From: Eledone cirrhosa
Taxonomy: Eukaryota
Direction of reading: 5' to 3'
DNA: 64,000 bases
NCBI GenBank assembly: GCA_964016885.1
Contig: OZ024741.1
Location: 239,258,001-239,322,000 of the forward strand
Shown: positions 20,551 to 57,030 of the stretch, one piece after another
Layout of the letters: the number at the start of each line of letters is the position of its first letter
Position numbering within the stretch: the first letter of the stretch is position 1
The notes under the pieces: model-generated
Seen by the model: the letters and a program-made list of their open reading frames with translations, nothing else
The model's database searches: none
What the model was told of the DNA's origin: nothing
Program-made: the position numbers and the translations under genes

Positions 20551-20680
20551 AAATTATCAGCTCCAGAAAATATTTAAACTCAACAGAATGCACTGCTGGT
20601 GTGTGGTGTCATATATGAGGTCTCATCGGTCAGTCTCCACATTATAAACAACAGCACATCACAAGAATTAATCACCCTAC

Positions 20681-21395: not shown

Positions 21396-23744
21396 CTTCA
21401 TAGATTTTTGAAGAGATCTGTTCATTGTTGATGTCTTCCAGTCTTCAGGATAGTAATGGCTTCTAGACTGACTATATCTGTCTGATATCTCTCCTCGATT
21501 ACCTGACATCACAGATACACTGTTGTTACCTTGATAGATCAACTGTCTCATCTCATTACGACATTGGTATGCCTGTTTCTCTTCTGTTGTTCTAGCTGAG
21601 TTATTTCTAACATTGTTACATCTCACAATACACAATGTTATAGAAACCACAATAGCTATAGATACTATCACAGCTGCTACTACAATGATAATCAACAATG
21701 TTGCATCTATTGTGTTATCAGTTGATACAGGGACAGCTGTGAACATTGGTGATGTCTTGTTACTAACAGTCAGTGTTAAAGAGACACTAGTTGTTGCTGA
21801 CAGAACTGGAGTACCACTGTCTTTCACAACAAACTCCAGTTGATATGATCCAGCATCATTTTGGTAAACTGTGCGAGAGTAAGATAAGACACCAGTGAAT
21901 GAGTCCAGTTTAAATAATTGTTTTTCATTACCTGAAAGGATTTCATACCTGAGAAAAGCATTCATGTGACTGTCTATATCAGAGGCTTTCAGAAGTGTGA
22001 TGTCATTCTTACTTTGTGGATGATAGTGGACATCAAGAGTGAAAGGGTCAACACTAGGAAATGTAAAATATGGAGCATTATCATTTTTATCTAATACTTC
22101 CACTTCAACATTCACTGTGTTATTTAGAGATGGTGTTCCATTGTCTTTGACTAAAACCTCAAAGTCATAGAAATCTCTGTGTTCTCTGTCTAAAGACTGG
22201 TTTGTTGAAATAAAGCCAGAGTTGATAATCTGGAATGGTAGACGATATTTGTGTTTATTTCTCAGATAATAACTTAATTCACCTCCCTTACCAACATCTG
22301 GGTCTGTAGCATTGATAAAACCAATAGGGAAATTAGCTTTGTCATTCTCATAGGTAAGGAACTTGAATGTATCTTTGGTAAAGTGTGGTTTTACATCATT
22401 CACATCTAACACTTGTATTGAGAGATCTTTATCAGTTTTGAGAGGAGGTAATCCTTTATCTTGACAGGAGACAGTGAAGTGATAATGTTCCTGTGTCTCT
22501 CTGTCTACTGCTTTCTTTAGAACTATTTTATATTCTTTAGATCCCATTGACTGTAGTTTGAAGGTATCGTGTTTGATATTACAGCTGACCTCTCCATTGT
22601 GTCCAACATCATTGTCAGTGACCATCACATAAGCAATGAAACTACCAACTTTGATATCTTCCAGAATGGTAGCTGTGTTGTGATTTGGTGTAGAAATAAA
22701 GTTGACATCAATATTTGGAGGATTGTTCTGTTGGTTGATAACATTTACCATAACAGTTGCTATGGCACTGAGTGGTGGACTGCCTCCATCTCTGGCTTCA
22801 ACATATAATTTAAATGATTTCTTTTTTTCCAAATCAGAATGTTTAGTCAAGAAAAGCTCCCCAGAATCTTTATCTATTATGAAATTACGTTTTGCTTCAG
22901 TTGATGTTGAGAGACTGAAATGATAAAAGATTTTACCATTTTCTCCAATATCAGAGTCTTTTGCCAACATGACAATAATTGGTATATTTCTTTTGTGGTT
23001 ATTTTGTATGGAGACATTGTATGTCTTCTCAGAAAATATTGGTCTATTATCATTCTCATCTTTGACAGTAATGTGTACAGTTAAGACACCTTGTTTGGGT
23101 GGATTTCCTCCATCTTTAGCTATCACTTCTATGTCATAACTGTCTTTTATCTCTCTATCTAACTTCTCATCTAATATAATTTCAAGGGAGGATACACCAT
23201 CAGCTCTTTGAAATGTAGACAAAGAAAATTGTTGGTTACTACCTTTTAATTCATAATTTACTAGTCTGTTCTGTAAACCAACATCATCATCAATTGCATT
23301 GGGTATTGATCGTTTTGTCCCCTTGCCCTCAGTTTCATAAAAATCTAAATTAATTTCTTCAACAGGAAACTCAGGTGTATGGTCATTGATGTCTTCTATC
23401 ATTACCTTAATCTTTAATATCTTTATAAATTTCTTTGCTCTATGAACTGCTACCTTAATTGTGCGAAAACATTCTTTCTCAAAACTACACAGAGACTCAG
23501 CATCCAGTGTTTGTGTAGTATATATCTTTCCATTACTGGTCACATTAAATAGCTGTGTCCCCTTCTGTTGTAACTGACTAAATGATAATAATGCAATGTC
23601 CTGTAACTGTGAATCAGCAGTGATGTCTCCTATATTGATAATACGACTGTTTTCTTCTTCCACATGGTAAACAATGTCTTCTTTAGAGAGTGAATAGTGA
23701 AGTAGAGACAGTAATATCCATATCTTTATTAAGACCATCTTCAT
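21396..23744 (-). CDS. Pcdh: protocadherin A large exon (signal peptide, EC1-6, TM, juxtamembrane); spliced protein ~873 aa
   Basis: DxNDN/LDRE/DxD cadherin motifs, C-X5-C in EC1, hydrophobic TM; AAG|GTAAGT donor at 21395; acceptor 28 nt upstream of ATG (exon starts 23772). Confidence 0.95.
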
Positions 23745-24934
23745 TAGTAGGATTAGGTATCAGTTAATCAGCCTGTAAATAAAAAAGGAAAACTATGATT
23801 CAGGTGACAAGAAACAATTATATAGTGTTGGTAAAATATAGAAATATGAAGTCATACAAGACACAATATTTTTTTCTGTTGTTTGGCATGAGGATATGAC
23901 TGCAGCTATCAATTTCATGTGATCTTTGAGATGAGACACATTATGTCATCAGGAAATCCTGAGAGTTAATGTTTTGAGAAGAAATGACAGACCATATCGG
24001 CTAGTGTGGGTTCTCAGAGGCAACAAACAGTAGAAGAACCGTCATATATATCGAACAGAATTACAGATATCTCATGTAGCCAGATTCTGAAGCGGTGGTA
24101 AACAACAGCATTCGAACTGTGAGGAGCAAATGCAGTAAGAGTCACCTCCAGATCTACATCATCGTGATATAATCTACTTCATTTACATTGGCATGTACAG
24201 TTACATTTTAACAAGTTATAGACCGGAGATTATTTATATACTGTGGTACCACCCGTAATACTGCTATTGCCTTTTTCTGCAGTTGATATTGTTCACGAAC
24301 CTCATATACATATTTTATCCCATGATGTTGATTCATCTGAGATCTTAAACAGTAGAATATTTAAATAATAGTCCTTGATATGATGACACTCACTTAAAAT
24401 ATGTATGATGAAAGAGGGCATCAAATATCACAATCCTTCTGTCTCCGTGACCCTTTTGTTGAAATTTATCCATCATTCACATTTATATTCAATACCACCA
24501 CCCTCTTTGATACCAACCATCAATTTTCACCTATGAAACTCTTATCCTTCAACCACCACCCTCACCACTACACTTTTCTGTAGTTCTCTCCTTAGCTGAC
24601 CATCATGTCAATGTCTCCCAATTTACATTCATATTCTCACCACCACAGATCTCTGTTGGTATCCAACAGTGGAAAGGAATCTTTTTCTATGCAGAGGACA
24701 TGACACAATCTCTAGTGCAACCAGTATATTCAGTTAAGGGATTAGTGTAAGGAAAGGCATCCAGCCATAGAAACCATGCAAAAAATTAGAACATACAAAC
24801 AAGATGTGAATAGAAACTAACTTGAGCCTTAGTGACCCATGCAACCTATACACACATGGAAAACCAATGTAAAAAGATAATGATGATGATGATTTGTTAA
24901 TTCATAAACAACTGAGAAATAGTTTATCTCAATC

Positions 24935-25822
24935 TGTAAAGTGGTGGTGTAGGGGTCACAACAAAAAGCACCCAGCACACACTGTAAAGTGGTCGTGAAG
25001 TGTCACAACAAAAAGCACCAAGCCCTCACTGTAAAGTGGTTGTGTAGGGGTCACGACAAAAAGCACCCAGCCCACATTGTAAAGTGGTCATGTAGGTGTC
25101 ATAACAAAAAGCACCCAGCCCTCACTGTAAAGTGGTTGTGTAGGTGTCACAACAAAAAGCACCAACTCACACTTTAAGGTGATTGTGTAGGTGTCACGAC
25201 AAAAAACACTCAGCCCACACTGTATAGTGGTCACGGAGGAGTCTACACAAAAAGCACCCAGCCCACACTGTAAACTGGTTGTGTAGGTGTCACAACAAAA
25301 AGCACTCAACTCACACTGTAAAGTGGCTATGTAGACGTCATGACAAAAAGCACTCTGTCCACACTGTAAACTGGTTGTGTAGGTGTCACAACAAAAAACA
25401 CTCAGCCTACACTGTATAGTGGTCACAGAGGAGTCTACACGAAAAGCACCCAGCCCACACTGTAAACTGGTTGTGTAGGTGTCACAACAAAAAGCACTCA
25501 AACCACACTGTAAAGTGGCTATGTAGACGTCATGACAAAAAGCACTCAGCCCACACTAAAAGGTGATCATATAGATGTCACAACAAAAGGCATTTACCCC
25601 ACACTGTAAAGTGATCGTGTAGGAGTCACGACAAAAAGCACCCAGCACACACTGTAAATGTGGATGGCGTTATGAAAGGCATCCAGCCATAGAAACCAAG
25701 CCAGAAACAGTCCTATATGAGCAAGACACGGTCACCTGACCTCACTTGCCTCTAATGGGACAACCCGTCTAACCCATGCTAGCGTGGAAAATGGACGTTA
25801 AATGATGATGATGATGATGATA
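24935..25822 (+). mobile_element. retroelement 3'-end family with an internal 48-bp minisatellite (~15 units) and (TGA)n tail
   Basis: unit TGTAAAGTGGTNGTGTAGGTGTCACAACAAAAAGCACCCAGCCCACAC; terminal CAACCCGTCTAACCCATGCTAGCGTGGAAAATGGACGTTAAATGATGATG. Confidence 0.85.
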
Positions 25823-27575: not shown

Positions 27576-27697
27576 TCAGTTAGTAATGACATCTGGTGTT
27601 GAAGGTAACTGTCTCTCTGGAGGTTTCACATATCTATCTTGATATTGTTGTCTATCACTGTTCACAACTGATGTATCATGTTGACTACCATAGATCC
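27576..27697 (-). CDS. protocadherin B terminal coding exon (GIYGSQHDTSVVNSDRQQYQDRYVKPPERQLPSTPDVITN*)
   Basis: CTCTTTTCCAG acceptor, open in phase 1 to TGA. Confidence 0.85.
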
Positions 27698-27870
27698 CTG
27701 GAAAAGAGACAGTTTTAGTGTAGCAATGTTAGAGACAATCACTGTTATCAGAAATACTGTAGTAATGACATACACACAGGACTAATTACACAACACTACA
27801 TAATTACAATTGGTACAATAATTAATAATGAAATAGTGTAATACTAAATGAGAATAGTTAGTCAACATAC

Positions 27871-28024
27871 CTGTCGTTGCTGGTATTTCTTCATACTGTC
27901 TACTTGACCTCTCACTCCAGCACTGTCCACTACTCTTACGACTGGTCAATGTATCAGTCGGATAGTTAGAAGATGGTCTGTTGTCTCCATAAGATGTCAC
28001 CTCTATAGGTTGACTATATTTCTG
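27871..28024 (-). CDS. protocadherin B first cytoplasmic exon
   Basis: 154 nt, AG/GT bounded, in frame. Confidence 0.85.
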
Positions 28025-28209
28025 CTGTAAAATATAAGTTACCAGAATGTAAAGATACGGATTATCAATGACAGTTTTATATCTGATATTGAATAAATTA
28101 CTATAGTTTAGTTCAATAAATACTTCAGTAAAAATATATTTATATATATTTATCTTTGAAAATATTATCTGAACTGGATAATATTAGAATATATTTCCAC
28201 TAAATAGGT

Positions 28210-28705
28210 CAATACCTAGGCACTCCTCCTTCTACATCATCACTACGAGCCTTGACATGGTCAGCTTTCCATAACTGAGGCCTGCTTGCTTTGACAATAG
28301 TGATGGTAAACACCCAGATGGGATAACCATTTTATCATTGAAGAAAAGTAAATCAAGGACACCATGACACCTTCTCTGCATCCAACCATGTCATTTTGGA
28401 AAGATATGCAGGCACGGCTATCTGAAACCCTGAGAAGACAAAGACAGCCAAATATCAGTACTTCACTGACCACTTTTTTTCATACTGGTCACTGCCAAGA
28501 CATCTGGTGTACTTTGAGTCTGAACTGGTGTTTTCCTCCACAAAATAGGAAGGAATACATAACTACCTAAAAAAAGCCATCTGTGAGAGGAAGTGACTGA
28601 TGCAGTGTGTTGCTGGCAATTCTCTGCAGCAATACCTCTGCCATTTTGTCCACAGGGCGCAGCTGAGATATACTGCCTAGACACATGTATAGAGTCTGCC
28701 ACAAT
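28210..28705 (+). mobile_element. decayed non-LTR retrotransposon relic (restriction-like endonuclease region, CRE-like); paralogous copies at ~36815-37315, 45965-46490, 53670-54005, 63785-64000
   Basis: translations resemble the RPDG-x-T...WDxT..DT...RK..KY..L...F..V..ET.G..G motif (clearest at 46081-46390); many stops. Confidence 0.6.
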
Positions 28706-29461
28706 ATTATACACTATTACAAAAATTATATAATTTAACTGAAATTTATTGAATAAAAATATTATTGTCGTAGATATTAAATATTTTTATCAAGGACTAA
28801 TATAGCATATTAATACACACATATGTATTAATATATATTTAAGGTAAATCATTTTACGTTAATCTTTTTCTATGTATCAGAAAAATTATTAGAAGTTTTA
28901 AGATATTCAAGTATATTGATTTCAGTGTGGACTGTGTGGACTGGACGATCTGTGATACCAACATAGCTTTACAGAGAAAAGGTGGTGTTGGGGGGAGTGA
29001 GAGGATTGAGTAGAGGTAGTGGGTTGGGGTGTATATTTGGTTAAGAGGTGCCTACTGACTGTAGGTTTAATTTTGTACGAAAGGGAAGGCGGGTCTCTGT
29101 TTTAGTGCGTAGCACCAATGGTCTTGATCCAGTGACATTGTCTTAGAGAGGTGTAAGTGTGCAAGGTCAGATTTTATCATGTGCCAGGTTTAAAATCTGA
29201 TCTTGCATGGTAGCAAGACATTTTGCTCAACACCCCACACATTGTGTTAAACTACAATCTCCTGTGTTGATTAATTTTGAGTATCTTGAAGATAAAATAC
29301 ATACAAAATATACAACACAAGTCATCATCATCATCATCATTTTATGTCCGCTCTTCCCTGCTTGCGAAATCAGATTTACTTAATTAACAATAATATTTAC
29401 AGAAACAAAACAATTCCAAAATAAAGATTAGTTACCACATAGTTATTAAAATAATACTTAC

Positions 29462-31804
29462 CCTTGTAGATTTCTGAAGAGATCTGTTCATTGTTGATGT
29501 CTTCCAGTCTTCAGGAGAGTAATGACTTCTAGACTGACTATATCTATCAGATATCTCTCCTCGATTATCTGACATCACAGATACACTGTTGTTACCTTGA
29601 TAGATCAACTGTCTCATCTCATTACGACATTGGTATGCCTGTTTCTCTTCTGTTGTTCTAGCTGAGTTATTTCTCACATTGTTACATCTCACAATACACA
29701 ATGTTATAGAAACCACAATAGCTATAGATACTATCACAGCTGCTACTACAATGATAATCAACAATGTTGCATCTATTGTGTTATCAGTTGGTACATGGAC
29801 AGCTGTGAACATTGGTGATGTCTTGTTACTAACAGTCAGTGTTAAAGAGACACTAGTTGTTGCTGACAGAACTGGAGTACCACTGTCTTTCACAACAAAC
29901 TCCAGTTGATATGATCCGGCATCATTTTGGTAAACTGTGCGAGAGTAAGATAAGACACCAGTGAATGAGTCCAGTTTAAATAACTGTCTCTCATTACCTG
30001 AAAGGATTTCATACCTGAGAAAAGCATTCATGTGACTGTCTATATCAGAGGCTTTCAGAAGTGTGATGTCATTCTTACTTTGTGGATGATAGTGGACATC
30101 AAGAGTGAAAGGGTCAACACTAGGAAATGTAAAATATGGAGCATTATCATTTTTATCTAATACTTCCACTTCAACATTTACTGTGTTATTTAGAGATGGT
30201 GTTCCATTGTCTTTGACAAAAACCTCAAAATCATAGAAATCTCTGTGTTCTCTGTCTAAAGATTGGTTTGTTGAAATAAAGCCAGAGTTGATAATCTGGA
30301 ATGGCAGACGATATTGGTGTTTATTTCTCAGATAATAACTTAATTCACCTCCCTTACCAACATCTGGGTCTGTAGCATTGATAAAACCAATAGGGAAATT
30401 AGCTTTGTCATTCTCATAGGTAAGGAACTTGAATATATCTTTGGTAAAGTGTGGTTTTACATCATTCACATCTAACACTTGTATTGAGAGATCTTTATCA
30501 GTTTTGAGAGGAGGTAATCCTTTATCTTGACAGGAGACAGTGAAGTGATAATGTTCCTGTGTCTCTCTGTCTACTGCTTTCTTTAGAACTATTTTATATT
30601 CTTTAGATCCCATTGACTGTAGTTTGAAGGTATCATGTTTAATATTACAGCTGACCTCTCCATTGTGTCCAACATCATTGTCAGTGACCATCACATAAGC
30701 AATGAAACTACCAACTTTGATATCTTCCAGAATGGTAGCTGTGTTGTGATTCTGTGTAGAAATATAGTTGACATCAATATTTGGAGGATTGTTGTGTTGG
30801 TTGATAACATTTACCATAACAGTTGCTATGGCACTGAGTGGTGGACTGCCTCCATCTCTGGCTTCAATATATAATTTAAATGATTTCATCTCATCTAAAT
30901 GATATTCTTTTGCCAAGAATATTTCCCCAGATTTCACATCTATAATGAAATTACTTTTTGATTCTGTTGCTGTTGTTGGGCTGATAAAATAAGAAATTTT
31001 ACCATTTTCTCCAATATCAGAGTCTTTTGCCAACATGATAATAATTGGTATATTTCTTTTCTGTTTATTTTGTATTGAGATATTGTATGTCTTCTCAGAA
31101 AATATTGGTCTGTTATCATTCTCATCTTTGACAGTAATGTGTACAGTTAAGACACCTTGTTTGGGTGGACTTCCTCCATCTTTAGAAATCACTTCTATGT
31201 CATAACTATCTTTTATCTCTCTATCTAACTTCTCATCTAACATAATTTCAAGAAACGATACACCATCAGCTCTTTGAAATGTAGACAAAGAAAACTGATT
31301 GTTACTACCTTTCAATTCATAATTCACTAGTCTGTTTTGTAAACCAACATCATCATCAATTGCATTGGGTATTGATCGTTTTGTCCCTTTGCTTTCAGTT
31401 TCATCAAAGTCTAAATTAATTTCTTCAACAGGAAACTCAGGTGTATGGTCATTGATGTCTTCTATCATTACCTTAATCTTTAATATCTTTATAAATTTCT
31501 CTGCTCTATGAACTGCTACCTTAATTGTACGAGAACATTCTTTCTCAAAACTACACAGAGACTCAGCATCCAGTGTTTGTGTAGTATATATCTTTCCATT
31601 ACTGGTCACATTAAATAGCTGTGTCCCCTTCTGTTGTAACTGACTAAATGATAATAATGCAATGTCCTGTAATTGTGAATCAGCAGTAATATCTCCTATA
31701 TTGATAATACGACTGTTTTCTTCTTTAACATGATAAACAATGTCTTCTTTAGAGAGTGAATAGTGAAGTAGAGACAGTAATATCCATATGTGTATTAAGA
31801 CCAT
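29462..31804 (-). CDS. Pcdh: protocadherin B large exon; spliced protein ~872 aa
   Basis: six EC repeats plus TM; AGG|GTAAGT donor at 29461; exon starts 31838. Confidence 0.95.
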
Positions 31805-32374
31805 CTTTGTTAGTGGAGTTAGTTGTCAGTTAATCAACCTGGAAATAGGAAACATAACTTTCATTTACTTGGTAGAAACCAATAATAGATGAATAGTATT
31901 CAATTAACTAAATTAAACATATTTTATATATTTCTTACTGCTTTATCACCATAATATTCAATATTCTACACAGAAAAAATCATTTAAAGAAACATCATTA
32001 TATTCCTTCTTTTTGTAAATATTTATTTAGAAATCTCAAGCTTCTCATTTTTATATTTTTGCTGTTAATTAACCCTTAATATATACATTATACATGATTT
32101 CACATGGAATATGAATAATTAAATTTTCCTTCTTTTCTGGGATTATTTTGTAATTTGTCGATATTCATTGTAAGATCCTGATTAGAAGATAGCAATGAGT
32201 GATGGCAATATTAACAGAGGGACTTCATACATATGACACTATGATAACCTATGACACTTGAAAGAATTAAAAACTGTAACACTTGGCACTTTCAATATCG
32301 TTCAATGTCAGATATAGAATATTACACTGATTTAATTTAGATCTGGGTATATATTACCTGCAATATCTCTACAC

Positions 32375-33270
32375 TAGCATGGGTTAGACGGGTTGTCCTG
32401 TTGTGGGCAATGCCAGGTCAGGTGACTGTTTCTTGCTCATACAGGACTGATTTTGTCTCGGAGTCTACAGCTGGTGCCCCTCCTAGCACCAACCTCATTT
32501 ACAGTGAGTACTAGGTGCTTTTTTACCATGGTGCCCACACGGTCACATTACAGTGTGGACTGGGTGTTTTTTGTCGTGACACCTACACGACCACTTTACA
32601 GTGGGAGGGGCATCAGGGCATATTGTCTGTATGCTTTAGCTTCGGATTGTACACGTGGGAAGTCGGATTTTCTGTATTACTGCGTAATGCCGAAGGTCTC
32701 GGTCTTGTGTCATCACCTTTGAGAAGTGTAATTGGGGAAGGTCAGCTTTTATCACCTCATTCCAGGTCTTCTTGGGTCACGCCATTCCAAGGCTTCCATC
32801 GACTTTTAGTGCTCTGCACCTTTTTATGCAACTGTCATCCTTCATATGCATCCGATGTCAATACCAATGCAATCTTGTCTCCTGCACACAACATTTGATT
32901 CCTCTTATGCTTAGTCGCTCTCTTAATTCGTTTATGCTTTGCCGTTTGCGTATATTATTATAACACATCCATCGGAGCATGCAAGCTTCATTTCTTTCTA
33001 ATTTACGCAAGTCCAGGGCTCACTACCATGTAACATTGATGTTTGTATGCATGCATCATACAGTCTGCCTTTTATTTTGAGGGAAAAGCTTTTTGTAGCT
33101 AGCAGTGGTAGTAGCTCCCTGAACTTCTTCCATCCTGTTCTTACCCTGGTTACTGTACTTTCAGAACACCCCCTCCGCTGCTAATCTGGTCTCCTAGATA
33201 GCAGAAGCTTTTTTACTGTTTCTACAGAGCCCTCCCAGAATTTGGTAGTTTTTGTTTCCTATTGCTGTTT
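32375..33270 (-). mobile_element. 5'-truncated RTE-like LINE 3' fragment with 48-bp-family units
   Basis: reverse complement of the element at 61075-61667, extended further 5'; decayed RT C-terminal coding sequence. Confidence 0.7.
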
Positions 33271-35261
33271 ACTGTCTCAGTACAACTGCTACATGTAAAG
33301 CCTACATTCCTAGCTAGACTTCCTGAGATCCTACTGACAATAATTGTTATTTATACAGGCACAGAACATTTAGGACTGCATATTTTATTATGTAGAACAG
33401 GTAGAAAGTATCAGCATGTTTTAAGAGAAAGACCAACAGGGCTAGTATTAGAAAAGGCATGTGGCCCTGACATACAATCTAATAAGACATGCCGAAGCCA
33501 TAACAGTAAGGAAAATGAATTTTTTTTTTCAATAGAAATTAAAAATGTATAGGTCCCCTCTCTGGAGAGGGACATTTAGGGAGCTAGATAAAACTGGCTA
33601 TGAATTAGTTACTCTTGGGGTTAGGGGAGTTATGCCTTATAGCAGACATAAAAACAATGATGATACTAATATGACATAATTAAACCTGTTTATTTACAGG
33701 TTTCTTAAGGTATTATCTAGCAAATATTGTCTATAATTGTTATTTATTCAGACAGTGTATCTTGGCTTATATTATCCAATATGTACTTGCTTTTAGGACA
33801 TAATAGGGTGGGGTTTGAGAGAGATTTGACTGTTATTTGAGCAAATCAATTGACCACATAATGGCTCAGATGACACATTGTTACCAGAGATACTTTCCCA
33901 TAATGTCTAACATTTTACATAAAACAGTTAATATAGAGAGAAAATATACAATATACACTATATATGTTTACAGCACACATTTTCCTCAAAATTATGAAGG
34001 GGAAAACTAGCACATGACTTACCTACAGCACCTAATAAAACCTCAATTCAAAATATATTGCATACTATAAAGGTTCCATGTAAAACTGAGTTGCAAGATT
34101 TACCAGTGAGAACTAAATATGTGTATATGGTATATAATAACAAGAAAAACAGGTGTACATTTTGCTACAGTAAATATGTTTCTATATAAATATTATAATA
34201 TTTTAACGGGTTCTCAAATTAGTATTTTACAAGATATTCCTCTATCTGAAACACAGGAATCAGATAAAAGCTAGAATTGCAACACAGTAAAATAAACATA
34301 TTCAATCAATATTCAAACATATTCAAACATATTCAAATCAATAATAACAATAAAACAGAATTGATAAAATAAATTAGTTATAGTATGTATTTATCAACAT
34401 TCTTCAACTATATATAAGATTAATTAGCATCGTTCAATAGAGTATTTTTAAGAAATTGTAAATAAAAACAATGAAATAAAATATTCTATATCATATGAAA
34501 ATAATTTATTTAGATAAATATATTATTTTGTAACTTAATATCTTTAAAGAAATAAAAGCCTTGGTATCAATAAATTTAAATAATATTTATTCTAAAGAAA
34601 TGAATAAGCAAAATTCCATATTTCATTAAAATGGCCTTGTTAAACAAGACTAATTAAGACAATAGTTTCAAATAAATTGTAAGAAATAAATTTTTAAAAT
34701 CACTTAAATCTGGAATAGTGTTAAATTTAGAAAGTTCAATAATATCACAATACTGTATTGATTATTTATGTTGACACTAAACCACCATCTTGTAAACTAT
34801 CCCCCTGTTTCACATTAGTATAATATATTAATAAAACAAACACATTGTTACATATGACTACAATAATGATATGGACAGTTTTAAATGATATTTAACATCA
34901 AACACTTAATATAAAAATATTCACAACACTATAAAACCTCAAGAACGTCTTCAGGAAATATATTACACATTATCAATATAGATAATATATAAAGGTGTCT
35001 AGAAATAAAGTTATGCTACCTAAATTTAAATATATTTCACCAGAAATATAACCATAATTAAATACCTCATTAGAGCAGAACATAAATGTTGAACATATCA
35101 ATGTCTATAGAAAATGTAGAACTGAGAATTTCTATCTTAAAATGTCTACTAACAATTTCTATATATATCATTTTATACTAAAATATGGCTAAATATATTT
35201 TATAAGAGATCCATATCACTTGAATAAGTTGGAAATATAATATAAATATTCATAAACTTAC

Positions 35262-36181: not shown

Positions 36182-36303
36182 TCAGTTAGTAATGACATCT
36201 GGTGTTGAAGGTAACTGTCTCTCTGGAGGTTTCACATATCTATCTTGATATTGTTGTCTATCACTGTTCACAACTGATGTATCATGTTGACTACCATAGA
36301 TCC
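36182..36303 (-). CDS. protocadherin C terminal coding exon
   Basis: same structure as in B, 122 nt to TGA. Confidence 0.85.
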
Positions 36304-36478
36304 CTGGAAAAGAGACAATCTTTTAGTGTAGCAATGTTAGAGACAATCACTGTTATCAGAAATACTGTAGTAATGACATACACACAGGACTAATTACACC
36401 AAACTACATAATTACAATTGGTACAATAATTAATAATGAAATAGTATAATACTAAATGAGAATAGTTAGTCAACATAC

Positions 36479-36632
36479 CTGTCGTTGCTGGTATTTCTTC
36501 ATACTGTCTACTTGACCTCTCACTCCAGCACTGACCACTACTCTTACGACTGGTCAATGTATCAGTGGGATAGTTAGAAGATGGCTTGTTGTCTCCATAA
36601 GATGTCACCTCTATAGGTTGACTATATTTCTG
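36479..36632 (-). CDS. protocadherin C first cytoplasmic exon
   Basis: 154 nt, AG/GT bounded. Confidence 0.85.
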
Positions 36633-37677
36633 CTGTAAAATATAAGTTACCAGAATGTAAAGATACGGATTATCAATGACAGTGTTATATCTGATATTGA
36701 ATAAATTACTATAGTTTAGTTCAATAAATACTTCAGTAAAAATATATTTATATATATTTATCTTTGAAAATATTATCTGAACTGGATAATATTAGAATAT
36801 ATTTCCACTAAACAGGTCAGTACCTAGGCACTCCTCCTTCTACATCATCACTAGAAGCCTTGACGTGGTCAACTTTCCATAACTGAGGCCTGCTTGCTTT
36901 GACCATAGTGATGGTAAACACCCAGATGGGATAACCATTTTATTATTGAAGAAAAGTAAATCAAGGACACCATGACACCTTCTCTGCATCCAACCATGTC
37001 ATTTTGGAAAGATATGCAGGCACGGCTATCTGAAACCCAGAGAAGACAAAGACAGCCAAATATCAGTACTTCACTGACCACTTCTTTTTCATACTGGTCA
37101 CTGCCAAGACATCTGGTGTACTTTGAGTCTGAACTGGTGTTTTCCTCCACAAAATAGGAAGGAATACATAACTACCTAAAAAAAGCCATCTGTGAGAGGA
37201 AGTGACTGATGCAGTCTATGTTGCTGGCAATTCTCTGCAGCAATACCTCTGCCATTTTGTCCACAGGGCGCAGCTGAGATATACTGCCTAGACACATGTA
37301 TAGAGTCTGCCACAATATTATACACTATTACAAAAATTATATAATTTAACTGAAATTTATTGAATAAAAATATTATTGTCGTAGATATTAAATATTTTTA
37401 TCAAGGACTAATATAGCATATTAATACACACATATGTATTAATATATATTTAAGGTAAATCATTTTACGTTAATCTTTTTCTATGTATCAGAAAAATTAT
37501 TAGAAGTTTTAAGATATTCAAGTATATTGATTTACAAGACTATGATTTATAGGAGTGGATATCATCAGTTATATAAACCCTCACTCCTAATTGGTGTTAA
37601 TTCTACCAACGTTGAGAGGATAGATTGGATTCTGGTTAGAGTTGAACTCTTGACATAATGGGATGTACGCAGAGGTC

Positions 37678-40817: not shown

Positions 40818-41383
40818 TAGTAGGATTAGGTATCAGTTAATCAACCTGGAAATAGGAAACATAACTTTCATTTACTTGTAGAAACCAATAATAGATGAAT
40901 AGTATTCAATTAACTAAATTAAACATATTTTATATATTTCTTACTGCTTTATCACCATAATGTTCAATATTCTACACAGAAAAAAATCATTTAAAGAAAC
41001 ATCATTATATTACTTCTTTTTGTAAATATTTATTTAGAAATCTCAAGCTTCTCATTTTTATATTTTTGCTGTTAATTAACCCTTAATATATACATTATAC
41101 ATGATTTCACATGGAATATGAATAATTAAATTTTCCTTCTTTTCTGGGATTATTTTGTAATTTGTCGATATTCATTGTAAGATCCTGATTAGAAGATAGC
41201 AATGAGTGATGGCTATATTAACAGAGGGACTTCATACATATGACACTATGGTAATCTATGACACTTGAAAGAATTAAAAACTGTAATACTTGGCACTTTC
41301 AATAATATCGTTCAATGTCAGATATAGAATATTACACTGATTTAATTTAGATCTAGGTATATATTACCTGCAATGTCTCTACA

Positions 41384-42280
41384 CTAGCATGGGTTAGACG
41401 GGTTGTCCTGTTTTGGGCAATGCCAGGTCAGGTGACTGTTTCTTGCTCATACAGGACTGATTTTGTCTCGGAGTCTACAGCTGGTGCCCCTCCTAGCACC
41501 AACCTCATTTACAGTGAGTACTGGGTGCTTTTTTACCATGGTGCCCACACGGTCACTTTACAGTGTGGACTGGGTGTTTTTTGTCGTGACACCTACACGA
41601 CCACTTTACAGTGGGAGGGGTATGAGGGCATACTGTCTGTATGCTTTAGCTTCGGATTGTACACGTGGGAAGTCGGATTTTCTGTATTATTGCGTAATGC
41701 CAAAGGTCTCGGTCCGGTGTCATCACCTTTGAGAAGTGTAATTGGGGAAGGTCAGCTTTTTCACCTCATTCCAGGTCTTCTTGGGTCACCCCATTCCAAG
41801 GCTTCCATCGACTTTTAGTGCTCTGCACCTTTTTATGCAACTGTCATCCTTCATATGCATCCCATGTCAATACCAATGCAATCTTGTCTCCTGCACACAA
41901 CATTTGATTCCTCTTATGCTTAGTCGCTCTCTTAATTCTTTTATGCTTTGCCGTTTGCGTATATTATTATTATAACACATCCATTGGAGCATGCAAGCTT
42001 CATTTCTTTCTAATTTACGCAAGTCCAGTGCTCACTACCATGTAACATTGATGTTTGCATGCATGCATCATACAGTCTGCCTTTTATTTTGAGGGAAAAG
42101 CTTTTTGTAGCTAGCAGTGGTAGTAGCTCCCTGAACTTCTTCCATCCTGTTCTTACCCTGGTTACTGTACTTTCAGAACACCCCCTCCGCTGCTAATTCG
42201 GTCTCCTAGATAGCAAAAGCTTTCTACTGTTTCTACAGAGCCCTCCCAGAATTTGGTAGTTTTTGTTTCCTATTGCTGTT
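41384..42280 (-). mobile_element. RTE-like LINE 3' fragment, duplicate of 32375-33270
   Basis: same position and near-identical sequence in the duplicated unit. Confidence 0.7.
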
Positions 42281-43345
42281 TACTGTCTCAGTACAACTGC
42301 TACATGTAAAGCCTACATTCCTAGCTAGACTTCCTGAGATCCTACTGACAATAATTGTTATTTATACAGGCACAGAACATTTAGGACTGCATATTTTATT
42401 ATGTAGAACAGGTAGAAAGTATCAGCATGTTTTAAGAGAAAGACCAACAGGGTTAGTATTAGAAAAGGCATGTGGCCCTGACATACAATCTAATAAGACA
42501 TGCCGAAGCCATAACAGTAAGGAAAATGAATTTTTTTTTTCAATAGAAATTAAAAATGTATAGGTCCCCTCTCTGGAGAGGGACATTTAGGGAGCTAGAT
42601 AAAACTGACTATGAATTAGTTACTCTTGGGGTTAGGGGAGTTATGCCTTATGGCAGACATAAAAACAATGATGATACTAATATGACATAATTAAACCTGT
42701 TTATTCACAGGTTTCTTAAGGTATTATCTAGCAAATATTGTCTATAATTGTTATTTACTCAGAGTGTATCTTGGCTTATATCATCCAATATGTACTTGCT
42801 TTTAGGACATAATAGGGTGGGGTTTGAGAGAGATTTGATTGTTATTTGAGCAAATCAATTGACCACATAATGGCTCAGATGACGCATTGTTACCAGAGAT
42901 ACTTTCCCATGTCTAACATTTTACATAAAACATAGTTAATATAGAGAAAATATACAATATACACTATATAATCATGTTTACAGCACATATTTTCCTCAAA
43001 ATTATGAAGGGGAAAACTAGCACATGACTTACGTACAGCACCTAATAAAACCTCAATTCAAAATATATTGCATGCTATAAAGGTTCCATGTAAAACTGAG
43101 TTGCAAGATTTACCAGTGAGAACTAAATATGTGTATATGGTATATAATAACAAGAAAAACAGGTGTACACTTTGCTACAGTAAATATGTTTCTATATAAA
43201 TATTATAATATTTTAACGGGTTCTCAAATTAGTATTTTACAAGATATTCCTCTATCTGAAACACAGGACTCAGATAAAAGATAGAATTGCAACACAGTAA
43301 AATAAACATATTCAATCAATATTCAAACATATTCAAATCAATAAT

Positions 43346-45336: not shown

Positions 45337-45458
45337 TCAGTTAGTAATGACATCTGGTGTTGAAGGTAACTGTCTCTCTGGAGGTTTCACATATCTATCT
45401 TGATATTGTTGTCTATCACTGTTCACAACTGATGTATCATGTTGACTACCATAGATCC
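45337..45458 (-). CDS. protocadherin D terminal coding exon
   Basis: 122 nt to TGA. Confidence 0.85.
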
Positions 45459-45633
45459 CTGGAAAAGAGACAATATTTTAGTGTAGCAATGTTAGAGACA
45501 ATCACTGTTATCAGAAATACTGTAGTAATGACATACACACAGGACTAATTACACAACACTACATAATTACAATTGGTACAATAATTAATAATGAAATAGT
45601 GTAATACTAAATGAGAATAGTTTGTCAACATAC

Positions 45634-45787
45634 CTGTCATTGCTGGTATTTCTTCATACTGTCTACTTGACCTCTCACTCCAGCACTGACCACTACTCTT
45701 ATGACTGGTCAATGTATCAGTGGGATAGTTAAAAGATGGCTTGTTGTCTCCATAAGATGTCACCTCTATAGGTTGACTATATTTCTG
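45634..45787 (-). CDS. protocadherin D first cytoplasmic exon
   Basis: 154 nt, AG/GT bounded. Confidence 0.85.
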
Positions 45788-47295
45788 CTGTAAAATATAA
45801 GTTACCAGAATGTAAAGGTACCAATTATCAATGACATTGTTATATCTGATATTGAATAAATTACTATAGTTTAGTTCAATGAATACTTCAGTAGAAATAT
45901 ATTTATACATTTATCTTTGAAAACGTTATCTCAAATGGATAATATTAGAATATAATATTTCCACTGTGCAAGCAGGTTTCCTAGGCACACTGGTGTGAAC
46001 AGCATCATTAGAAAGTGCCCTGATGTGTCTAGCTTCCCATCATAACAGGGGCCTGCTGACCTTGATCATGGTGATGGCAAGACCACAGATGTGATAACCC
46101 TTTTATGATTTGAGGAAAGTAAATCTCTGATCTAGCATGCCATGTACTGTGATACATTCTTTTCTTCTCACATTGTTCTTTTGATAACAAACCCAGACAC
46201 TACTGCATGGAACTCTAAGAAAAGGAAGACAGCCAAGTACCAGGACTTGACCAAGGACTTCGTTTTCATCCTGGTCACTGTCAAGACATCTGAAATCCTT
46301 GGTCTTTGGACAGTTGTTTTCCTCCACAAAATCGACTGGAATACATCCTGGCTGAGGAAGGAGACCTGTGAAAGGAATTATCTCCTGTAGTGCTGGTTGT
46401 TTCTGCAATGCCTTTGCCATTTTGCTCCCAGGGCACAGCTGAGATATACTGCCTAGACCTATTTATAGATGTATGGAGTCTGCCACTATGTTCTCCTTCT
46501 CCTTACATGTATTATATTTTATTACAAAAATTATATTATTTAATTGAAATTTGTTGAATAAAAACATTGTGGTTGGTATCAAATATTTCTTATTAAGGTC
46601 TAATAAAGTATTCCGCACATGTGTTAATACTTATTTACCATAAATCATTGTGGTAAACATAAATTTCATGCTTGGGATAATTCAAAATGACAATGTATTC
46701 TAAATATATATTGTAAATATAATCAAAGAATGTTCAATGTGAATCTTTTTGTATGTATCAGAAAGATTATCAATAATTTATTAGGAAGTTCAAGATATTC
46801 AGGTATAAACAATACAACCACAAGCCTAAAATTTATAGGGTTGCATATCATCAAGTATATAAACACTGAGTCATAACTAGTATTCATTTTATGAATGTTG
46901 GGAGGATTAATTACAGAATCAGATGTACCCAGAGGTAGCAAGATATTTTGCCTGATATCCCACAGATTCAGTTCAACAACAGTCTCCTAGTGTTGATTAA
47001 TTTTGAGGGTCTTGAAGATAAATTACAGATAAAATGTATGACAGAATTCTCAGAATGAGATGTACCCATAGGTCGCAAGATATTTTACTCGACAAGCCAC
47101 AGATTGTGTTAAACTACAGTCTCCAGTGTTGATTTATTTTGAGTGACTTGAAGATAAATTGTACACAAAATATAAGACACACAATTCTGTATGTAAATTT
47201 TACTAGATTTACTTAACTAACAATAATATGTACAAAAACAAAACAATTCAAAGATAAAGATGTGTTACAAAATAGTTACGTAAAATAACACTTAC

Positions 47296-49638
47296 TCTGG
47301 TTGATTTCTGAAGAGATCTGTTCATTGTTGATGTCTTCCAGTCTTCAGGATAGTAATGGCTTCTAGACTGACTATATCTGTCTGATATATCTCCTCGATT
47401 ACCTGACATCACAGATACACTGTTGTTACCTTGATAGATCAACTGTCTCATCTCATTACGACATTGGTATGCCTGTTTCTCTTCTGTTGTTCTAGCTGAG
47501 TTATTTCTCACATTGTTACATCTCACAATACACAATGTTATAGAAACCACAATAGCTATAGATACTATCACAGCTGCTACTACAATGATAATCAACAATG
47601 TTGCATCTATTGTGTTATCAGTTGGTACATGGACAGCTGTGAACATTGGTGATGTCTTGTTACTAACAGTCAGTGTTAAAGAGACACGAGTTGTTGCTGA
47701 CAGAACTGGAGTACCACTGTCTTTCACAACAAACTCCAGTTGATATGATCCAGCATCATTTTGGTAAACTGTGCGAGAGTAAGATAAGACACCAGTGAAT
47801 GAGTCCAATTTAAATAACTGTCTCTCATTACCTGAAAGGATTTCATACCTGAGAAAAGCATTCATGTGACTGTCTATATCAGAGGCTTTCAGAAGTGTGA
47901 TGTCATTCTTACTTTGTGGATGATAGTGTATATCAAGAGTGAAAGGGTCAACACTAGGAAATGTAAAATATGGAGCATTATCATTTTTATCTAATACTTC
48001 CACTTCAACATTCACTGTGTTATTTAGAGATGGTGTTCCATTGTCTTTGACAAAAACCTCAAAATCATAGAAATCTCTGTGTTCTCTGTCTAAAGACTGG
48101 TTTGTTGAAATAAAGCCAGAGTTGATAATCTGGAATGGTAGATGATATTGGTGTTTATTTCTCAGATAATAACTTAATTCACCTCCCTTACCAACATCTG
48201 GGTCTGTAGCATTGATAAAACCAATAGGGAAATTAGCTTTGTCGTTCTCATAGGTAAGGAACTTGAATGTATCTTTGGTAAAGTGTGGTTTTACATCATT
48301 CACATCTAACACTTGTATTGAGAGATCTTTATCAGTTTTGAGAGGAGGTAATCCTTTATCTTGACAGGAGACAGTAAAGTGATAATGTTCCTGTGTCTCT
48401 CTGTCTACTGCTTTCTTTAGAACTATTTTATATTCCTTAGATCCCATTGACTGTAGTTTGAATGTATCATGTTTGATATTACAGCTGACCTCTCCATTGT
48501 GTCCAACATCATTGTCAGTGACCATCACATAAGCAATGAAACTACCAACTTTGATATCTTCCAGAATGGTAGCTGTGTTGTGATTCTGTGTAGAAATATA
48601 GTTGACATCAATATTTGGAGGATTGTTCTGTTGGTTGATAACATTTACCATAACAGTTGTTATGGCACTGAGTGGTGGGTTGCCATTATCTCTGGCTTCA
48701 ATATATAATTTAAATGATTTCATCTCATCTAAGTGATATTCTTTTGCCAAAAATATTTCTCCAGATTTCACATCTATAATAAAATTATTTTTTGATTCTG
48801 TTGCTGTTGTTGGGCTGATAAAATAAGAAATTTTACCATTTTCTCCAATATCAGAGTCTTTTGCCAACATGACAATAATTGGTATATTTCTTTTGTGGTT
48901 ATTTTGTATGGAGACATTGTATGTCTTCTCAGAAAATATTGGTCTGTTATCATTCTCATCTTTGACAGTAATGTGTACAGTTAAGAAACCTTGTTTGGGT
49001 GGATTTCCTCCATCTTTAGCTATCACTTCTATGTCATAATTATCTTTTATCTCTCTATCTAACTTCCCACCTAACATGATTTCAAGAAATGATACACCAT
49101 CAGCTCTTTGAAATGTAGACAAAGAAAACTGTTGGTTACTTCCTTTCAATTCATAATTCACTAGTCTGTTCTGTAAACCAACATCTTCATCAATTGCATT
49201 GGGTATTGATTTTTTCATACCTTTTCCATCTCCTTCTTCAAATTTTAACTGGATTTCTTCAACAGGAAACTCAGGTGTATGGTCATTGATGTCTTCTATC
49301 ATTACCTTAATCTTTAATATCTTTATAAATTTCTCTGCTCTATGAACTGCTACCTTAATTGTACGAGAACATTCTTTCTCAAAACTACACAGAGACTCAG
49401 CATCCAGTGTTTGTGTAGTATATATCTTTCCATTACTGGTCACATTAAATAGCTGTGTCCCCTTCTGTTGTAACTGACTAAATGATAATAATGCAATGTC
49501 CTGTAACTGTGAATCAGCAGTAATATCTCCTATATTGATAATACGACTGTTTTCTTCTTTCACATGGTAAACAATGTCTTCTTTAGAAAGTGAATAGTGA
49601 AGTAGAGACAGTAATATCCATATCTGTATTAAGACCAT
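47296..49638 (-). CDS. Pcdh: protocadherin D large exon; spliced protein ~872 aa
   Basis: six EC repeats plus TM; AGA|GTAAGT donor at 47295; exon starts 49672. Confidence 0.95.
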
Positions 49639-53028: not shown

Positions 53029-53150
53029 TCAGTTAGTAATGACATCTGGTGTTGAAGGTAACTGTCTCTCTGGAGGTTTCACATATCTATCTTGATATTG
53101 TTGTCTATCACTGTTCACAACTGATGCATCATGTTGACTACCATAGATCC
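53029..53150 (-). CDS. protocadherin E terminal coding exon
   Basis: 122 nt to TGA. Confidence 0.85.
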
Positions 53151-53323
53151 CTGGAAAAGAGACAATATTTTAGTGTAGCAATGTTAGAGACAATCACTGT
53201 TATCAGAAATACTGTAGTAATGACACACACAGGACTAATTACACCAAACTACATAATTACAATTGGTACAATAATTAATAATGAAATAGTGTAATACTAA
53301 ATGAGAATAGTTTGTCAACATAC

Positions 53324-53477
53324 CTGTCATTGCTGGTATTTCTTCATACTGTCTACTTGACCTTTCACTCCAGCACTGTCCACTGCTCTTACGACTGGTC
53401 AATGTATCAGTGGGATAGTTAGAAGATGGCCTGTTGTCTCCATAAGATGTCACCTCTATAGGTTGACTATATTTCTG
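53324..53477 (-). CDS. protocadherin E first cytoplasmic exon
   Basis: 154 nt, AG/GT bounded. Confidence 0.85.
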
Positions 53478-54693
53478 CTGTAAAATATAAGTTACCAGAA
53501 TGTAAAGATACCAATTATCAATGACAGTGTTATATCTGATATTGAATAATTTATAACAGCTTAGTTCAATGAATACAATGCTTCCATAGATGTCTATTTA
53601 TATATATTTATCTCTAAAAATGTTATCTCAAATCGAGCATATTAGTTAATATTCCACTTAAAAATATAAATCTGGAATGCCAATTGCCGTGACATTCCCT
53701 GCCTCTACTCATCATTTTGATAACTAATCAAGGCATTGCTGTCGGAAACACTGAGAAGAAGAAGATACCAGGACTTGACTGGCCACTTCTTTTTCATGCT
53801 GGTCACTGACAGGATATCTGGTGTACTAATGCTTTCCTCCACAAAGTCAGAAGCAATATATCATGCCTGAAGAAGGAAACCTTTTAGAGGAAATGGCTGA
53901 TGCAGTATGTTGCTTATTGTTCTCTGCAGCAATTATTTTGCTATTTTGTCCACAAGACACCGCTGAGATATACTACATGGACACATGTATGGAGTCTGTT
54001 ACAATATCCTCCTTCCCCTTACATTCATTATATATTATAGCAAACATTATATAATTTAATTGAAATTTATTGAATAAAAATATTATTGTCATAGATATTA
54101 AATATTTTTTTATCAAGGACTAATAAAGCATTCCATACGTATGTGTTAATGCTTATTTAATGTGAAACATTGATGTAAGCATAAATATCATACTTGATAG
54201 ATAATTCAAAATGACAATATATTCCAAAATATAATCAAAGCATGCTTAAAGTGAGTCTTTGTGTGTCAGAAAGATTATTAAAAATGTTTTAGTGTAGCAA
54301 TGTTAGAGACAAGATATTCAAGTATATTGATTTACAAGACTATAATTTGGAGGGGTGGATATCATCTCTTATATAAACACTCTGTCCTAATTAGTGTTTA
54401 TTTTATCAATGTTGGGAGAAATACATTGGATTCTGGTGAGAGTTGAACTCTATACGGAAAGAGATGTACCCACAGGTAGCAAGACATTTTGTCCAACACC
54501 CCACTCACTGTGTTAAACTAGTCTCCTGTGTTAAATTATTTTGAGTGACTTGAAGATAAATTACAGACAAAATGAATGACACAATTCTGTATACAAATTT
54601 TACCAGATTTACTTAACTAACTAATATTTAGAGAAACAAAACAATTCAAAAATAAACATGAGTTACAACATAGTTAAATAAAATAATACTTAC

Positions 54694-57030
54694 CCTAGTT
54701 GATTTCTGAAGAGATCTGTTCATTGTTGATGTCTTCCAGTCTTCAGGATAGTAATGACTTCTAGACTGACTATATCTGTCTGATATCTCTCCTCGATTGC
54801 CTGACATCACAGATACACTGTTGTTACCTTGATAGATCAACTGCCTCATCTCATTACGACATTGGTATGCCTGTTTCTCTTCTGTTGTTCTAGCTGAGTT
54901 ATTTCTTACATTGTTACATCTCACAATACACAATGTTATAGAAACCACAATAGCTATAGATACTATCACAGCTGCTACTACAATGATAATCAACAATGTT
55001 GCATCTATTGTGTTATCAGTTGGTACATGGACAGCTGTGAACATTGGTGATGTCTTGTTACTAACAGTCAGTGTCAAAGAGACACTAGTTGTTGCTGACA
55101 GAACTGGAGTACCACTGTCTTTCACAACAAACTCCAGTTGATATGATCCAGCATCATTTTGGTAAACTGTACGAGAGTAAGATAAGACACCAGTGAATGA
55201 GTCCAGTTTAAATAACTGTCTCTCATTACCTGAAAGGATTTCATACCTGAGAAAAGCATTCATGTGACTGTCTATATCAGAGGCTTTCAGAAGTGTGATG
55301 TCATTCTTACTTTGTGGATGATAGTGGACATCAAGAGTGAAAGGGTCAACACTTGGAAATGTAAAATATGGAACATTATCATTTTTATCTAATACTTCCA
55401 CTTCAACATTCACTGTGTTATTTAGAGATGGTGTTCCATTATCTTTGACTAAAACCTCAAAGTCATAGAAATCTCTGTGTTCTCTGTCTAAAGACTGGTT
55501 TGTTGAAATAAAACCAGAGTTGATAATCTGGAATGGTAGACGATATTGGTGTTTATTTCTCAGATAATAACTTAATTCACCTCCTTTACCAACATCTGGG
55601 TCTGTAGCATTGATAAAACCAATAGGGAAATTAGCTTTGTCATTCTCATAGGTAAGGAACTTGAATGTATCTTTGGTAAAGTGTGGTTTTACATCATTCA
55701 CATCTAACACTTGTATTGAGAGATCTTTATCAGTTTTGAGAGGAGGTAATCCTTTATCTTGACAGGAGACAGTAAAGTGATAATGTTCCTGTGTCTCTCT
55801 GTCTACTGCTTTCTTTAGAACTATTTTATATTCCTTAGATCCCATTGACTGTAGTTTGAATGTATCATGTTTGATATCACAGCTGACCTCTCCATTGTGT
55901 CCAACATCATTGTCAGTGACCATCACATAAGCAATGAAACTACCAACTTTGATATCTTCCAGAATGGTAGCTGTGTTGTGATTCTGTGTAGAAATATAGT
56001 TGACATCAATATTTGGAGGATTGTTCTGTTGGTTGATAACATTTACCATAACAGTTGCTATGGAACTAAGAGGTGGGTTGCCCCCATCTCTGGCCTCTAT
56101 ATACAATTTAAAGAATTTCTTCTTTTCTAAAGCAGAATGTTTGGCTAAGAATATTTCTCCAGTTTTCTGATCAACCTTGAAATTATTTATTGATTCTTTA
56201 GAGGTTAATGAACTGATAAAATAAGAAGTGTTACCATTTTCTCCAATATCAGAGTCTTTTGCCAACATGACAATAAATGGTATATTTCTTTTGTGGTTAT
56301 TTTGTATAGAGATATTGTATGTTTTCTCAGAAAATATTGGTCTGTTATCATTCTCATCTTTGACAGTAATGTGTACAGATAAGACACCTTGTTTGGGTGG
56401 ACTTCCTCCATCTTTAGCTATCACTTCTATGTCATAACTATCTTTTATCTCTCTATCTAACTTCCTATCTAACACAACTTCTAATGAGACCAACCTATCT
56501 GCTATCTGAAATGTAGACAAAGAAAACTGTTGGTTACTTCCTTTCAATTCATAATTTACTAGTCTGTTCTGTAAACCAACATCTTCATCAATGGCATTGG
56601 GAATGGACTTTTTCATACCTTTTCCATCTCCTTCTTCAAATTTTAACTGGATTTCTTCAACAGGAAACTCAGGTGTATGGTCATTGATGTCTTCTATCAT
56701 TACCTTAATCTTTAATATCTTTATAAATTTCTCTGCTCTATGAACTGCTACCTTAATTGTGCGAGAACATTCTTTCTCAAAACTACACAGAGACTCAGCA
56801 TCCAGTGTTTGTGTAGTATATATCTTTCCATTACTGGTCACATTAAATAGCTGTGTCCCCTTCTGTTGTAACTGACTAAATGATAATAATGCAATGTCCT
56901 GTAACTGTGAATCAGCAGTAATATCTCCTATATTGATAATTCGATGGTTTTCTTCTTTCACGTGGTAAACAATGTCTTCTGTAGAATAGTGAAGTAGAGA
57001 CAGTAGTATCCATATCTGTATTAAGACCAT
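54694..57030 (-). CDS. Pcdh: protocadherin E large exon; spliced protein ~870 aa
   Basis: six EC repeats plus TM; AGG|GTAAGT donor at 54693; exon starts 57056; two-codon deletion near the signal-peptide end. Confidence 0.95.

Follow-up and report, generated by a model that had tools for sequence, protein, structure and literature searches.

How can neighbouring genes be kept nearly identical along most of their length and still stay distinct in three short stretches of the same two domains? This question is raised by a 64-kb window of the Eledone cirrhosa genome (assembly GCA_964016885.1, contig OZ024741.1, positions 239,258,001 to 239,322,000; position 1 below is the first letter of this 64,000-nucleotide stretch), which holds five intact minus-strand open reading frames (ORFs) of 797-805 codons each, referred to here as A to E (start codons: A, 23738; B, 31804; C, 40811; D, 49638; E, 57030). 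Pfam recognises PF08266 (N-terminal Cadherin_2) and five PF00028 stretches in A and E, which together with one membrane segment give the six-repeat protocadherin type. The best-matching solved structures are likewise protocadherins, with about 30% (27-33%) identity to the solved vertebrate chains, and the best 120 of 1538 database matches are all Argonauta or Octopus proteins, with a top identity of 82-83%. Judged by their sequence, A to E are three-exon octopod protocadherin genes that arose as whole-gene duplicates. We consider it probable that they form a tandem array under concerted evolution with a protected island in extracellular cadherin repeats 2 and 3 (EC2-EC3), where three variable patches are spared as the trans-binding face.

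Variation among the five proteins is concentrated in these two repeats: within codons 20-781, 61 of 220 EC2-3 columns vary, compared with 25 of 542 elsewhere (Fisher p=7e-18), and pairwise identity over EC1-4 ranges from 88.7 to 97.2%. Within EC2-3, the variable columns gather in three patches whose limits were drawn after inspection of the alignment (45 of 84 patch columns variable, against 16 of the remaining 136). Patch 1 comprises strand A', the A'-B loop and strand B of EC2 (23286-23354 in A, 31352-31420 in B, 40359-40427 in C, 49186-49254 in D, 56584-56652 in E), patch 2 the D-E loop and strand E of EC2 (23166-23210, 31232-31276, 40239-40283, 49066-49110 and 56464-56508, in the same gene order), and patch 3, in EC3, strand C with the helix between C and D, followed by strands D and E plus the E-F loop (22797-22934, 30863-31000, 39870-40007, 48697-48834 and 56095-56232). 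The original prediction for this locus, whose span of 22800-56660 corresponds to the end of patch 3 in A (22797) and the start of patch 1 in E (56652), had described an EC2 start that separates A, B and C from D and E, an EC2 middle distinct in E and an EC3 core of three types (A; B/C/D; E); its motifs and groupings are found as claimed. Its wording that diversity is confined to EC2-EC3 survives as a strong enrichment but not to the letter, given the variable columns outside, and the constant tail that it assumed does not extend to the third exon of A, which is only 67% identical to those of B-E. The ratio of replacement to silent divergence (dN/dS), taken from pairwise counts, is 0.32 in EC2 and 0.44 in EC3, and patch 1 differs between D and E by four silent and no replacement changes. 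Positive selection in the patches was not seen in the pairwise counts, and no site models were run. Because of these low ratios, the patch differences would appear to be old ones that were kept rather than rapidly replaced.

Silent sites follow the same partition. Mean silent divergence (dS) is 0.22 in EC2-3 and 0.058 elsewhere, an approximately fourfold difference, and reaches 0.49-0.54 within the patches. Among codons with invariant residues, 32 of 159 vary silently in EC2-3 and 38 of 517 outside (p=2e-5), and A is unlike E at 9 of 11 four-fold sites inside the patches, compared with 8 of 204 outside. All ten gene pairs have a dS of 0.04-0.08 outside EC2-3, where every pair retains 14-28 silent differences. 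The first intron (28025-29461 in B) serves as a gauge of the true age of the copies: its alignable parts have diverged by 16-19% among B/C, D and E, and the introns of A cannot be aligned with those of B-E at all. The second intron (27698-27870 in B, 173 bp), which lies between two exons and serves as an internal control for conversion, has diverged by only 1.2-4.7% among B to E and a sixth gene, F; since it is non-coding, protein constraint cannot account for this likeness. Along the B-E units, mismatch is 11-44% upstream, 0-5% in most of exon 1 and about 20% at the patches before it rises again in intron 1. The patches form islands of 45-140 bp between flanks that are 97-99% identical. The dS contrast, the diverged intron 1 and the grouping of EC4-to-tail sequences by species, described below, together argue that gene conversion homogenises most of each gene outside EC2-3, as originally predicted; where congruent domain trees and uniform dS would have spoken against that proposal, we found conflicting trees and uneven dS.

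Traces of conversion are also seen in the youngest pair. B and C are very recent twins, with 1.5% divergence in intron 1, and their coding silent divergence is three times the non-coding (p=4e-5). For 16 of their 44 differences both states are present in A, D or E; outside EC2-3 this holds for 10 of 27, compared with 5.7% expected (p=1e-6), which argues that small conversion tracts are still moving between the genes. Over 5.4 kb, identity between the units of B and C is 97.6% (28934-34327 and 37938-43337), but their 3' flanks are 8% apart; the two units may result from one recent unequal crossover near exon 3 or represent two haplotypes assembled in tandem. The last 43 bases before the start codon of C are shared with A (95%; 23739-23781 and 40812-40854) and not with its twin B, and C and A also share two silent sites at codons 38-39; this stretch may be a very recent tract between non-neighbours. 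Gene A itself carries an exon 1 of the B-E clade (EC1 80% identical to that clade, 66% to the other), an exon 3 nearer the other clade (60% versus 39%), and introns and an upstream region that cannot be aligned. It may be a chimera formed by unequal crossover at the array end, or its exon 1 may have been replaced in full through conversion. Could recent duplication under purifying selection, without any conversion and with a fast-evolving EC2-3 in young genes, explain the pattern? The young B/C pair and the octopod protocadherin burst dated to 8-14 million years ago (Ma; PMC9795677) would fit. We regard this explanation as hardly tenable, however: silent sites and intron 2 are homogenised and intron 1 is not, exon 1 of A is near-identical next to unalignable introns, EC4-to-tail groups by species and EC1-3 across species, and the non-uniform dS and conflicting domain trees contradict it.

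For the comparison across octopods, 38 of the best 120 matches were aligned with A-E, with species assigned from record names; because the database was clustered at 90%, the number of near-identical paralogues is underestimated. EC4-6 identity is 97.5-100% within species and 91-96% between species; EC2 and EC3 identity is 62-69% within Argonauta and within Octopus sinensis. A protein tree of EC4 to tail with 16 rows grouped the genes by species (support 100/100 for A-E, 99/98 for O. sinensis, 99/97 for Argonauta), and so did a tree with 29 of the 43 rows. Trees of EC1, EC2 and EC3 joined genes across species, and a tree of the N-terminal half of EC2 (48 columns) was mostly unresolved. In the patch 2 and 3 columns, E grouped with the Argonauta protein P0002 (99/96), and monophyly of A-E was rejected by the approximately unbiased (AU) test (p-AU 0.0025). 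The patch types are therefore older than the species, with patches 2 and 3 of E matching an Argonauta gene. Among 125 proteins, a threshold of at least 95% identity in EC5-6 yielded six same-species groups of at least three members, including A-E. The other five have identities of 76-85% in EC1, 57-73% in EC2 and 51-70% in EC3, with EC4 at 92-99% in four of them; the constant EC1 of the original prediction is thus a property of A-E, where it is near-invariant, but not of the other same-species groups. The least identical domain in 338 same-species pairs, which are not independent and for which EC5-6 was the selection criterion, is EC3 in 234, EC2 in 88, EC1 in 16 and EC4 in none. An example is O. 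sinensis P0021, which is 100% identical to its conspecific P0004 in EC4-6 and 62% in EC1-3, compared with 95% and 76% to Argonauta P0029. Gaps in P0018, P0028 and P0029 (Argonauta) and in P0025 (O. sinensis) start at the EC2 D strand or D-E loop, that is, at patch 2, and may be annotation artefacts or real breaks at the island edge.

Do the three patches share one history? Under domain limits that had been set in advance, D grouped with E in the DNA tree of EC2 (100/99; A+E rejected, p-AU 0.0007), and the EC3 DNA tree separated B+C+D from A+E (99/97; D+E rejected, p-AU 0.03). A compatibility test for recombination was significant with 61 informative sites (p=1e-4), and of 30 triplet tests, the top four (uncorrected p=0.0002 for each) include those that set D against B/E and C/E, where the break falls near codon 177. 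If the patch types are labelled T or M for patch 1, R or I for patch 2 and P, S or other for patch 3, labels assigned in this analysis, A is T-R-other, B and C are T-R-P, D is M-R-P and E is M-I-S; elsewhere, O. sinensis P0003 is M-R-P and Argonauta P0002 is T-I-S. All four combinations of patch 1 with patch 2 and with patch 3 occur across these seven genes, while patches 2 and 3 stay linked, indicating that the EC2 A'-B patch has moved onto other D-E-loop/EC3 backgrounds at least once. The mosaic blocks and incongruent per-domain trees that had been predicted are thereby recovered. D does combine an E-type EC2 start with a B/C-type EC3 as proposed, but its status as a recombinant does not follow, since P0003 has the same combination; a recent origin of D by recombination is unsupported given this occurrence in another genus. 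The recombinant may instead be B/C, E or the Argonauta gene, or the D-like combination of P0003 may have a convergent origin. Nor can we uphold the proposal that new specificities were made here by conversion: the patch types were present before the split from Argonauta or O. sinensis, and amino-acid changes are not in excess. Among 15 Argonauta paralogues, a set without the gapped models, compatible sites again cluster significantly (p=0.0005), and patch 2 varies together with patch 3 (Mantel r=0.48, p=0.001); patch 1 tracks neither patch 2 nor patch 3 (r=0.20, p=0.09 and 0.06), although it lies nearer to patch 2. With equal-sized blocks, r is 0.36 for patches 2 and 3 versus 0.06 and 0.15 for patch 1, and patch 2 gives r=0.03 and 0.08 with the two blocks that separate it from the EC3 C-D loop versus 0.61 with its upstream neighbour. 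In so few and related sequences, this coupling is a weak hint.

These comparisons also bear on the assembly, as collapsed or chimeric repeat copies could mimic both identity and shuffling, and B and C could be two haplotypes placed in tandem. That such an artefact explains the pattern is very improbable in our view: the silent differences retained by every pair outside EC2-3, the end of homogenisation at exon edges, the recurrence of the pattern in Argonauta and O. sinensis and the recurrence of D's combination in O. sinensis all speak against it.

Where on the protein do the patches lie? An AlphaFold2 model of D EC1-4 was built from a 99-row alignment (mean per-residue confidence, pLDDT, 84.8; predicted template-modelling score, pTM, 0.56). 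A homodimer prediction for the same segment scored 0.00 in both runs with the alignment unused and counts neither way. In vertebrates, the trans-interface elements of EC2 are the A-B loop, strand B, the D-E loop plus the start of strand E, and those of EC3 are the C-D loop, parts of the F and G strands as well as the F-G loop (PMC5115871); the EC2 beta4-beta5 loop touches the EC3 beta3-beta4 loop in trans (PMC5001838). By homology and topology rather than by contacts, patches 1 and 2 and half of patch 3 are placed on such elements in the model. The EC3-4 linker lacks the usual calcium motifs: there is no DRE in EC3 and no aspartates (22716-22740 in A, at the same place in B-E), both aspartates are absent from the six commonest linker words and so from at least 75 of 99 octopod rows, and the EC3 E-F loop is the site of the lost calcium-binding DRE motif. 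The canonical calcium motifs are present in the EC3-4 linker of Pcdh19 (PMC5115871), and our literature search found only vertebrate papers and no report on this linker in cephalopods. The calcium-poor linker may act as a flexible hinge inside the presumed binding unit. As to whether the observed differences could matter, mouse isoforms that are 92% identical discriminate via five residues (PMC8901172), and since five residues suffice there, A, B/C, D and E differ enough from one another for discrimination. As a caution, EC1:EC4 also contributes to vertebrate binding (PMC5106212), and both domains are nearly constant in A-E.

Taken together, these observations show that conversion continually overwrites EC4-EC6, the membrane segment and the tail throughout a subfamily in each species, and does so for EC1 in smaller subgroups, with the three EC2-EC3 patches escaping and keeping their pre-species types. 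We propose that they escape because, as in vertebrate protocadherins, they make up the EC2:EC3 face in a trans dimer of antiparallel chains. A tract that erased them would make two genes redundant or break self-binding and be selected against; rare tracts from EC1 into the start of EC2 would swap patch 1 and so create another surface. In such a cell-identity code, each gene would stand for one letter, and all would have stalk and tail in common. A more elaborate form of this idea is an independent modular homophilic barcode on the EC2:EC3 face that vertebrates use, in which conversion replaces constant exons by keeping EC4-6 and the tail alike, the coupled D-E and C-D loops serve as an ancient lock and key, the A'-B block is swapped between genes and so multiplies specificities, the calcium-poor linker is a hinge and the ages of the young burst are partly conversion dates; taken as a whole, we find it possible but doubtful.

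The main rival is that the patches escaped neutrally: EC2-3, as the least constrained region, would have diverged first, fallen below the identity needed for strand pairing and stayed out of conversion without any selection on binding. We consider this unlikely, though it agrees with a dN/dS below 1, with the EC3 E-F loop, where the calcium motif was lost, as the most variable element, and with the statement that accumulated substitutions stop conversion (PMC3924837). It accommodates less well that a tract with an anchor on either side should be able to span islands of 45-140 bp, that patch amino acids are conserved across species (E and P0002) and patch 1 of D and E differs only silently, and that the same domains are spared in separate subfamilies and in vertebrates. 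Second in our ranking, and rather less likely again, is selection on the patches for something other than homophilic recognition, such as heterophilic pairing, graded affinities or another ligand, perhaps in another dimer geometry through the calcium-poor linker. The EC3 D-E-EF part of patch 3 lies off the vertebrate face, patch 1 recombines freely with respect to EC3, which strict EC2:EC3 complementarity might forbid, and non-clustered delta-protocadherins cross-bind within their family (PMC8901172). Yet patches 1 and 2 and the C-D helix match vertebrate elements, and the D-E and C-D loops that touch in vertebrate trans dimers are weakly coupled here.

A protected island that serves as a trans-binding face has several points to reckon with. 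More variable than any other stretch, the D-E-EF half of patch 3 is outside the vertebrate interface elements, while the EC3 F-G region, which is such an element, varies little among A-E; given the calcium-poor linker, the vertebrate dimer geometry may not carry over. The dN/dS ratios stay below 1, and B and C differ by only 10 EC2-3 residues, so that they may share one specificity or result from duplication in the assembly. Codons 177-341 do not reject D+E (p-AU 0.06), and the recombination test was not significant with silent sites only (22 sites, p=0.24). The whole of EC2-3 does not reject monophyly of A-E (p-AU 0.45), the patch-only monophyly test used columns picked after inspection, and EC4 is diverse (73%) in one of the five other groups. 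The convergent recognition code of the original prediction agrees with patches that lie largely on vertebrate trans elements, but not with the D-E-EF half of patch 3. On balance, we infer such a code in octopod protocadherins as a candidate.

How does this array compare with known systems? Like the vertebrate clustered protocadherins (alpha, beta, gamma), it has six EC repeats and a membrane segment in one large exon, a tandem arrangement, dS highest in EC2-EC3 and lowest in EC4-6, and variability that affects, in EC2, the A-B and D-E regions and, in EC3, the C-D loop. The vertebrate pattern of spared EC2-3 and converted EC4-6 is already known (PMC4978886, citing Noonan 2004). Unlike in the alpha and gamma clusters, there are apparently no variable exons spliced to shared constant exons, although splicing across units may occur; because exons 2 and 3 are present separately in every gene, the common tail of A-E would be kept by conversion and not by splicing. 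The octopod genes further differ in the absent EC3-4 calcium motifs and in the recombined block types, EC2-3 being described as apparently free of conversion in the vertebrate clusters (PMC4978886). The cephalopod protocadherin expansion is described as independent of the vertebrate one (PMC9068888), in keeping with the 27-33% identity to vertebrate chains, and like other coleoid sub-arrays, A-E are multi-exon, same-direction whole-gene duplicates (PMC9068888; PMC9795677). Conversion in coleoid protocadherins had been suggested at the whole-gene level in the same papers; our analysis goes beyond these accounts in that it shows conversion to be restricted by domain, with EC1-3 alone revealing orthology across species. 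A further parallel is exon 5 of the red and green opsins, where silent and replacement divergence both rise in a narrow peak flanked by homogenised sequence, which was interpreted as a sign of selection against conversion (PMC3924837, with reference to Teshima and Innan 2008). As under that model, the flanks here group by species and the patch 2 and 3 columns across species, with the p-AU of 0.45 for the whole of EC2-3 as a caveat; unlike the opsins, many paralogues and three peaks are involved, and the functional target would be assigned by homology. We found no domain-level conversion analysis of cephalopod protocadherins in the literature, although Albertin 2015, Wang and Ragsdale 2017 or supplements may hold one, and the accessible sections of PMC6339937, PMC9068888, PMC9795677 and PMC10084454 contain no per-domain analysis. 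According to PMC6339937, nothing is known of the adhesion specificity of cephalopod protocadherins, and the accessible part of PMC9068888 makes no functional claim for them.

The gene models underlying this analysis are known from DNA alone, with exon joins inferred from GT/AG sites and homologues. The end of each ORF runs into intron 1 past the splice donor, and the real tail would be encoded by two further exons. Gene A (18063-23738) has coding exons 23738-21396, 20834-20681 and 18181-18063; B (27576-31804) has 31804-29462, 28024-27871 and 27697-27576; C (36182-40811) has 40811-38469, 36632-36479 and 36303-36182; D (45337-49638) has 49638-47296, 45787-45634 and 45458-45337; and E (53029-57030) has 57030-54694, 53477-53324 and 53150-53029, all on the minus strand. 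Spliced in this way, A-E are open frames of 870-872 residues. F contributes exons 2 and 3 (63213-63661, minus strand), with exon 1 outside the window; exons 2 and 3 are private to each of A-F, and all genes share one transcription direction. A shared constant exon downstream of the array is ruled out, each gene having its own exons 2 and 3 and positions 1-18000 no protocadherin remnant. BLAST found no common promoter block upstream of all five genes, no motif search having been made, and the 2.3 kb upstream of A align with B-E only at repeats. About 25-35 bases before each start codon (for example 23770-23785) lies a pyrimidine tract followed by AG, which suggests a splice acceptor just 5' of the coding start, with an untranslated first exon and promoters further upstream.

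Among the repeats, a 48-bp tandem repeat with 15 copies (24934-25663) lies upstream of A, and shorter arrays of similar period occur near 11179, 19256, 37829, 41508 and 61391; this repeat probably belongs to a mobile element. Another element, of 190 bp and with 91-93% identity between copies, is found in the 3' flank of every gene including A (17362-17546, 26666, 35256, 44423, 52110 and 62305), with an extra lone copy at 13223-13410. A 1.2-kb AT-rich microsatellite (14096-15320) is a source of spurious ORFs, and a 1-kb stretch with 53% GC (16001-17000) is likely a transposon fragment.

Finally, we would like to consider what this array means for the protocadherins of octopods. Together with Argonauta P0002 and O. 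sinensis P0003, A-E provide a natural two-by-two set of block combinations against a background that hardly varies. Distances taken over whole genes lead to wrong dates and wrong assignments for these octopod protocadherins, as the comparisons of P0021 with P0004 and P0029 illustrate. If the A-E subfamily belongs to the beta group of PMC9795677, the burst dated there to 8-14 Ma may be affected as well. A selection-like footprint on the domains and loops that match those of vertebrates would be sequence evidence for convergence of the binding surface, beyond gene number, and suggests that octopuses separately reached a vertebrate-like way to give nerve cells distinct identities.

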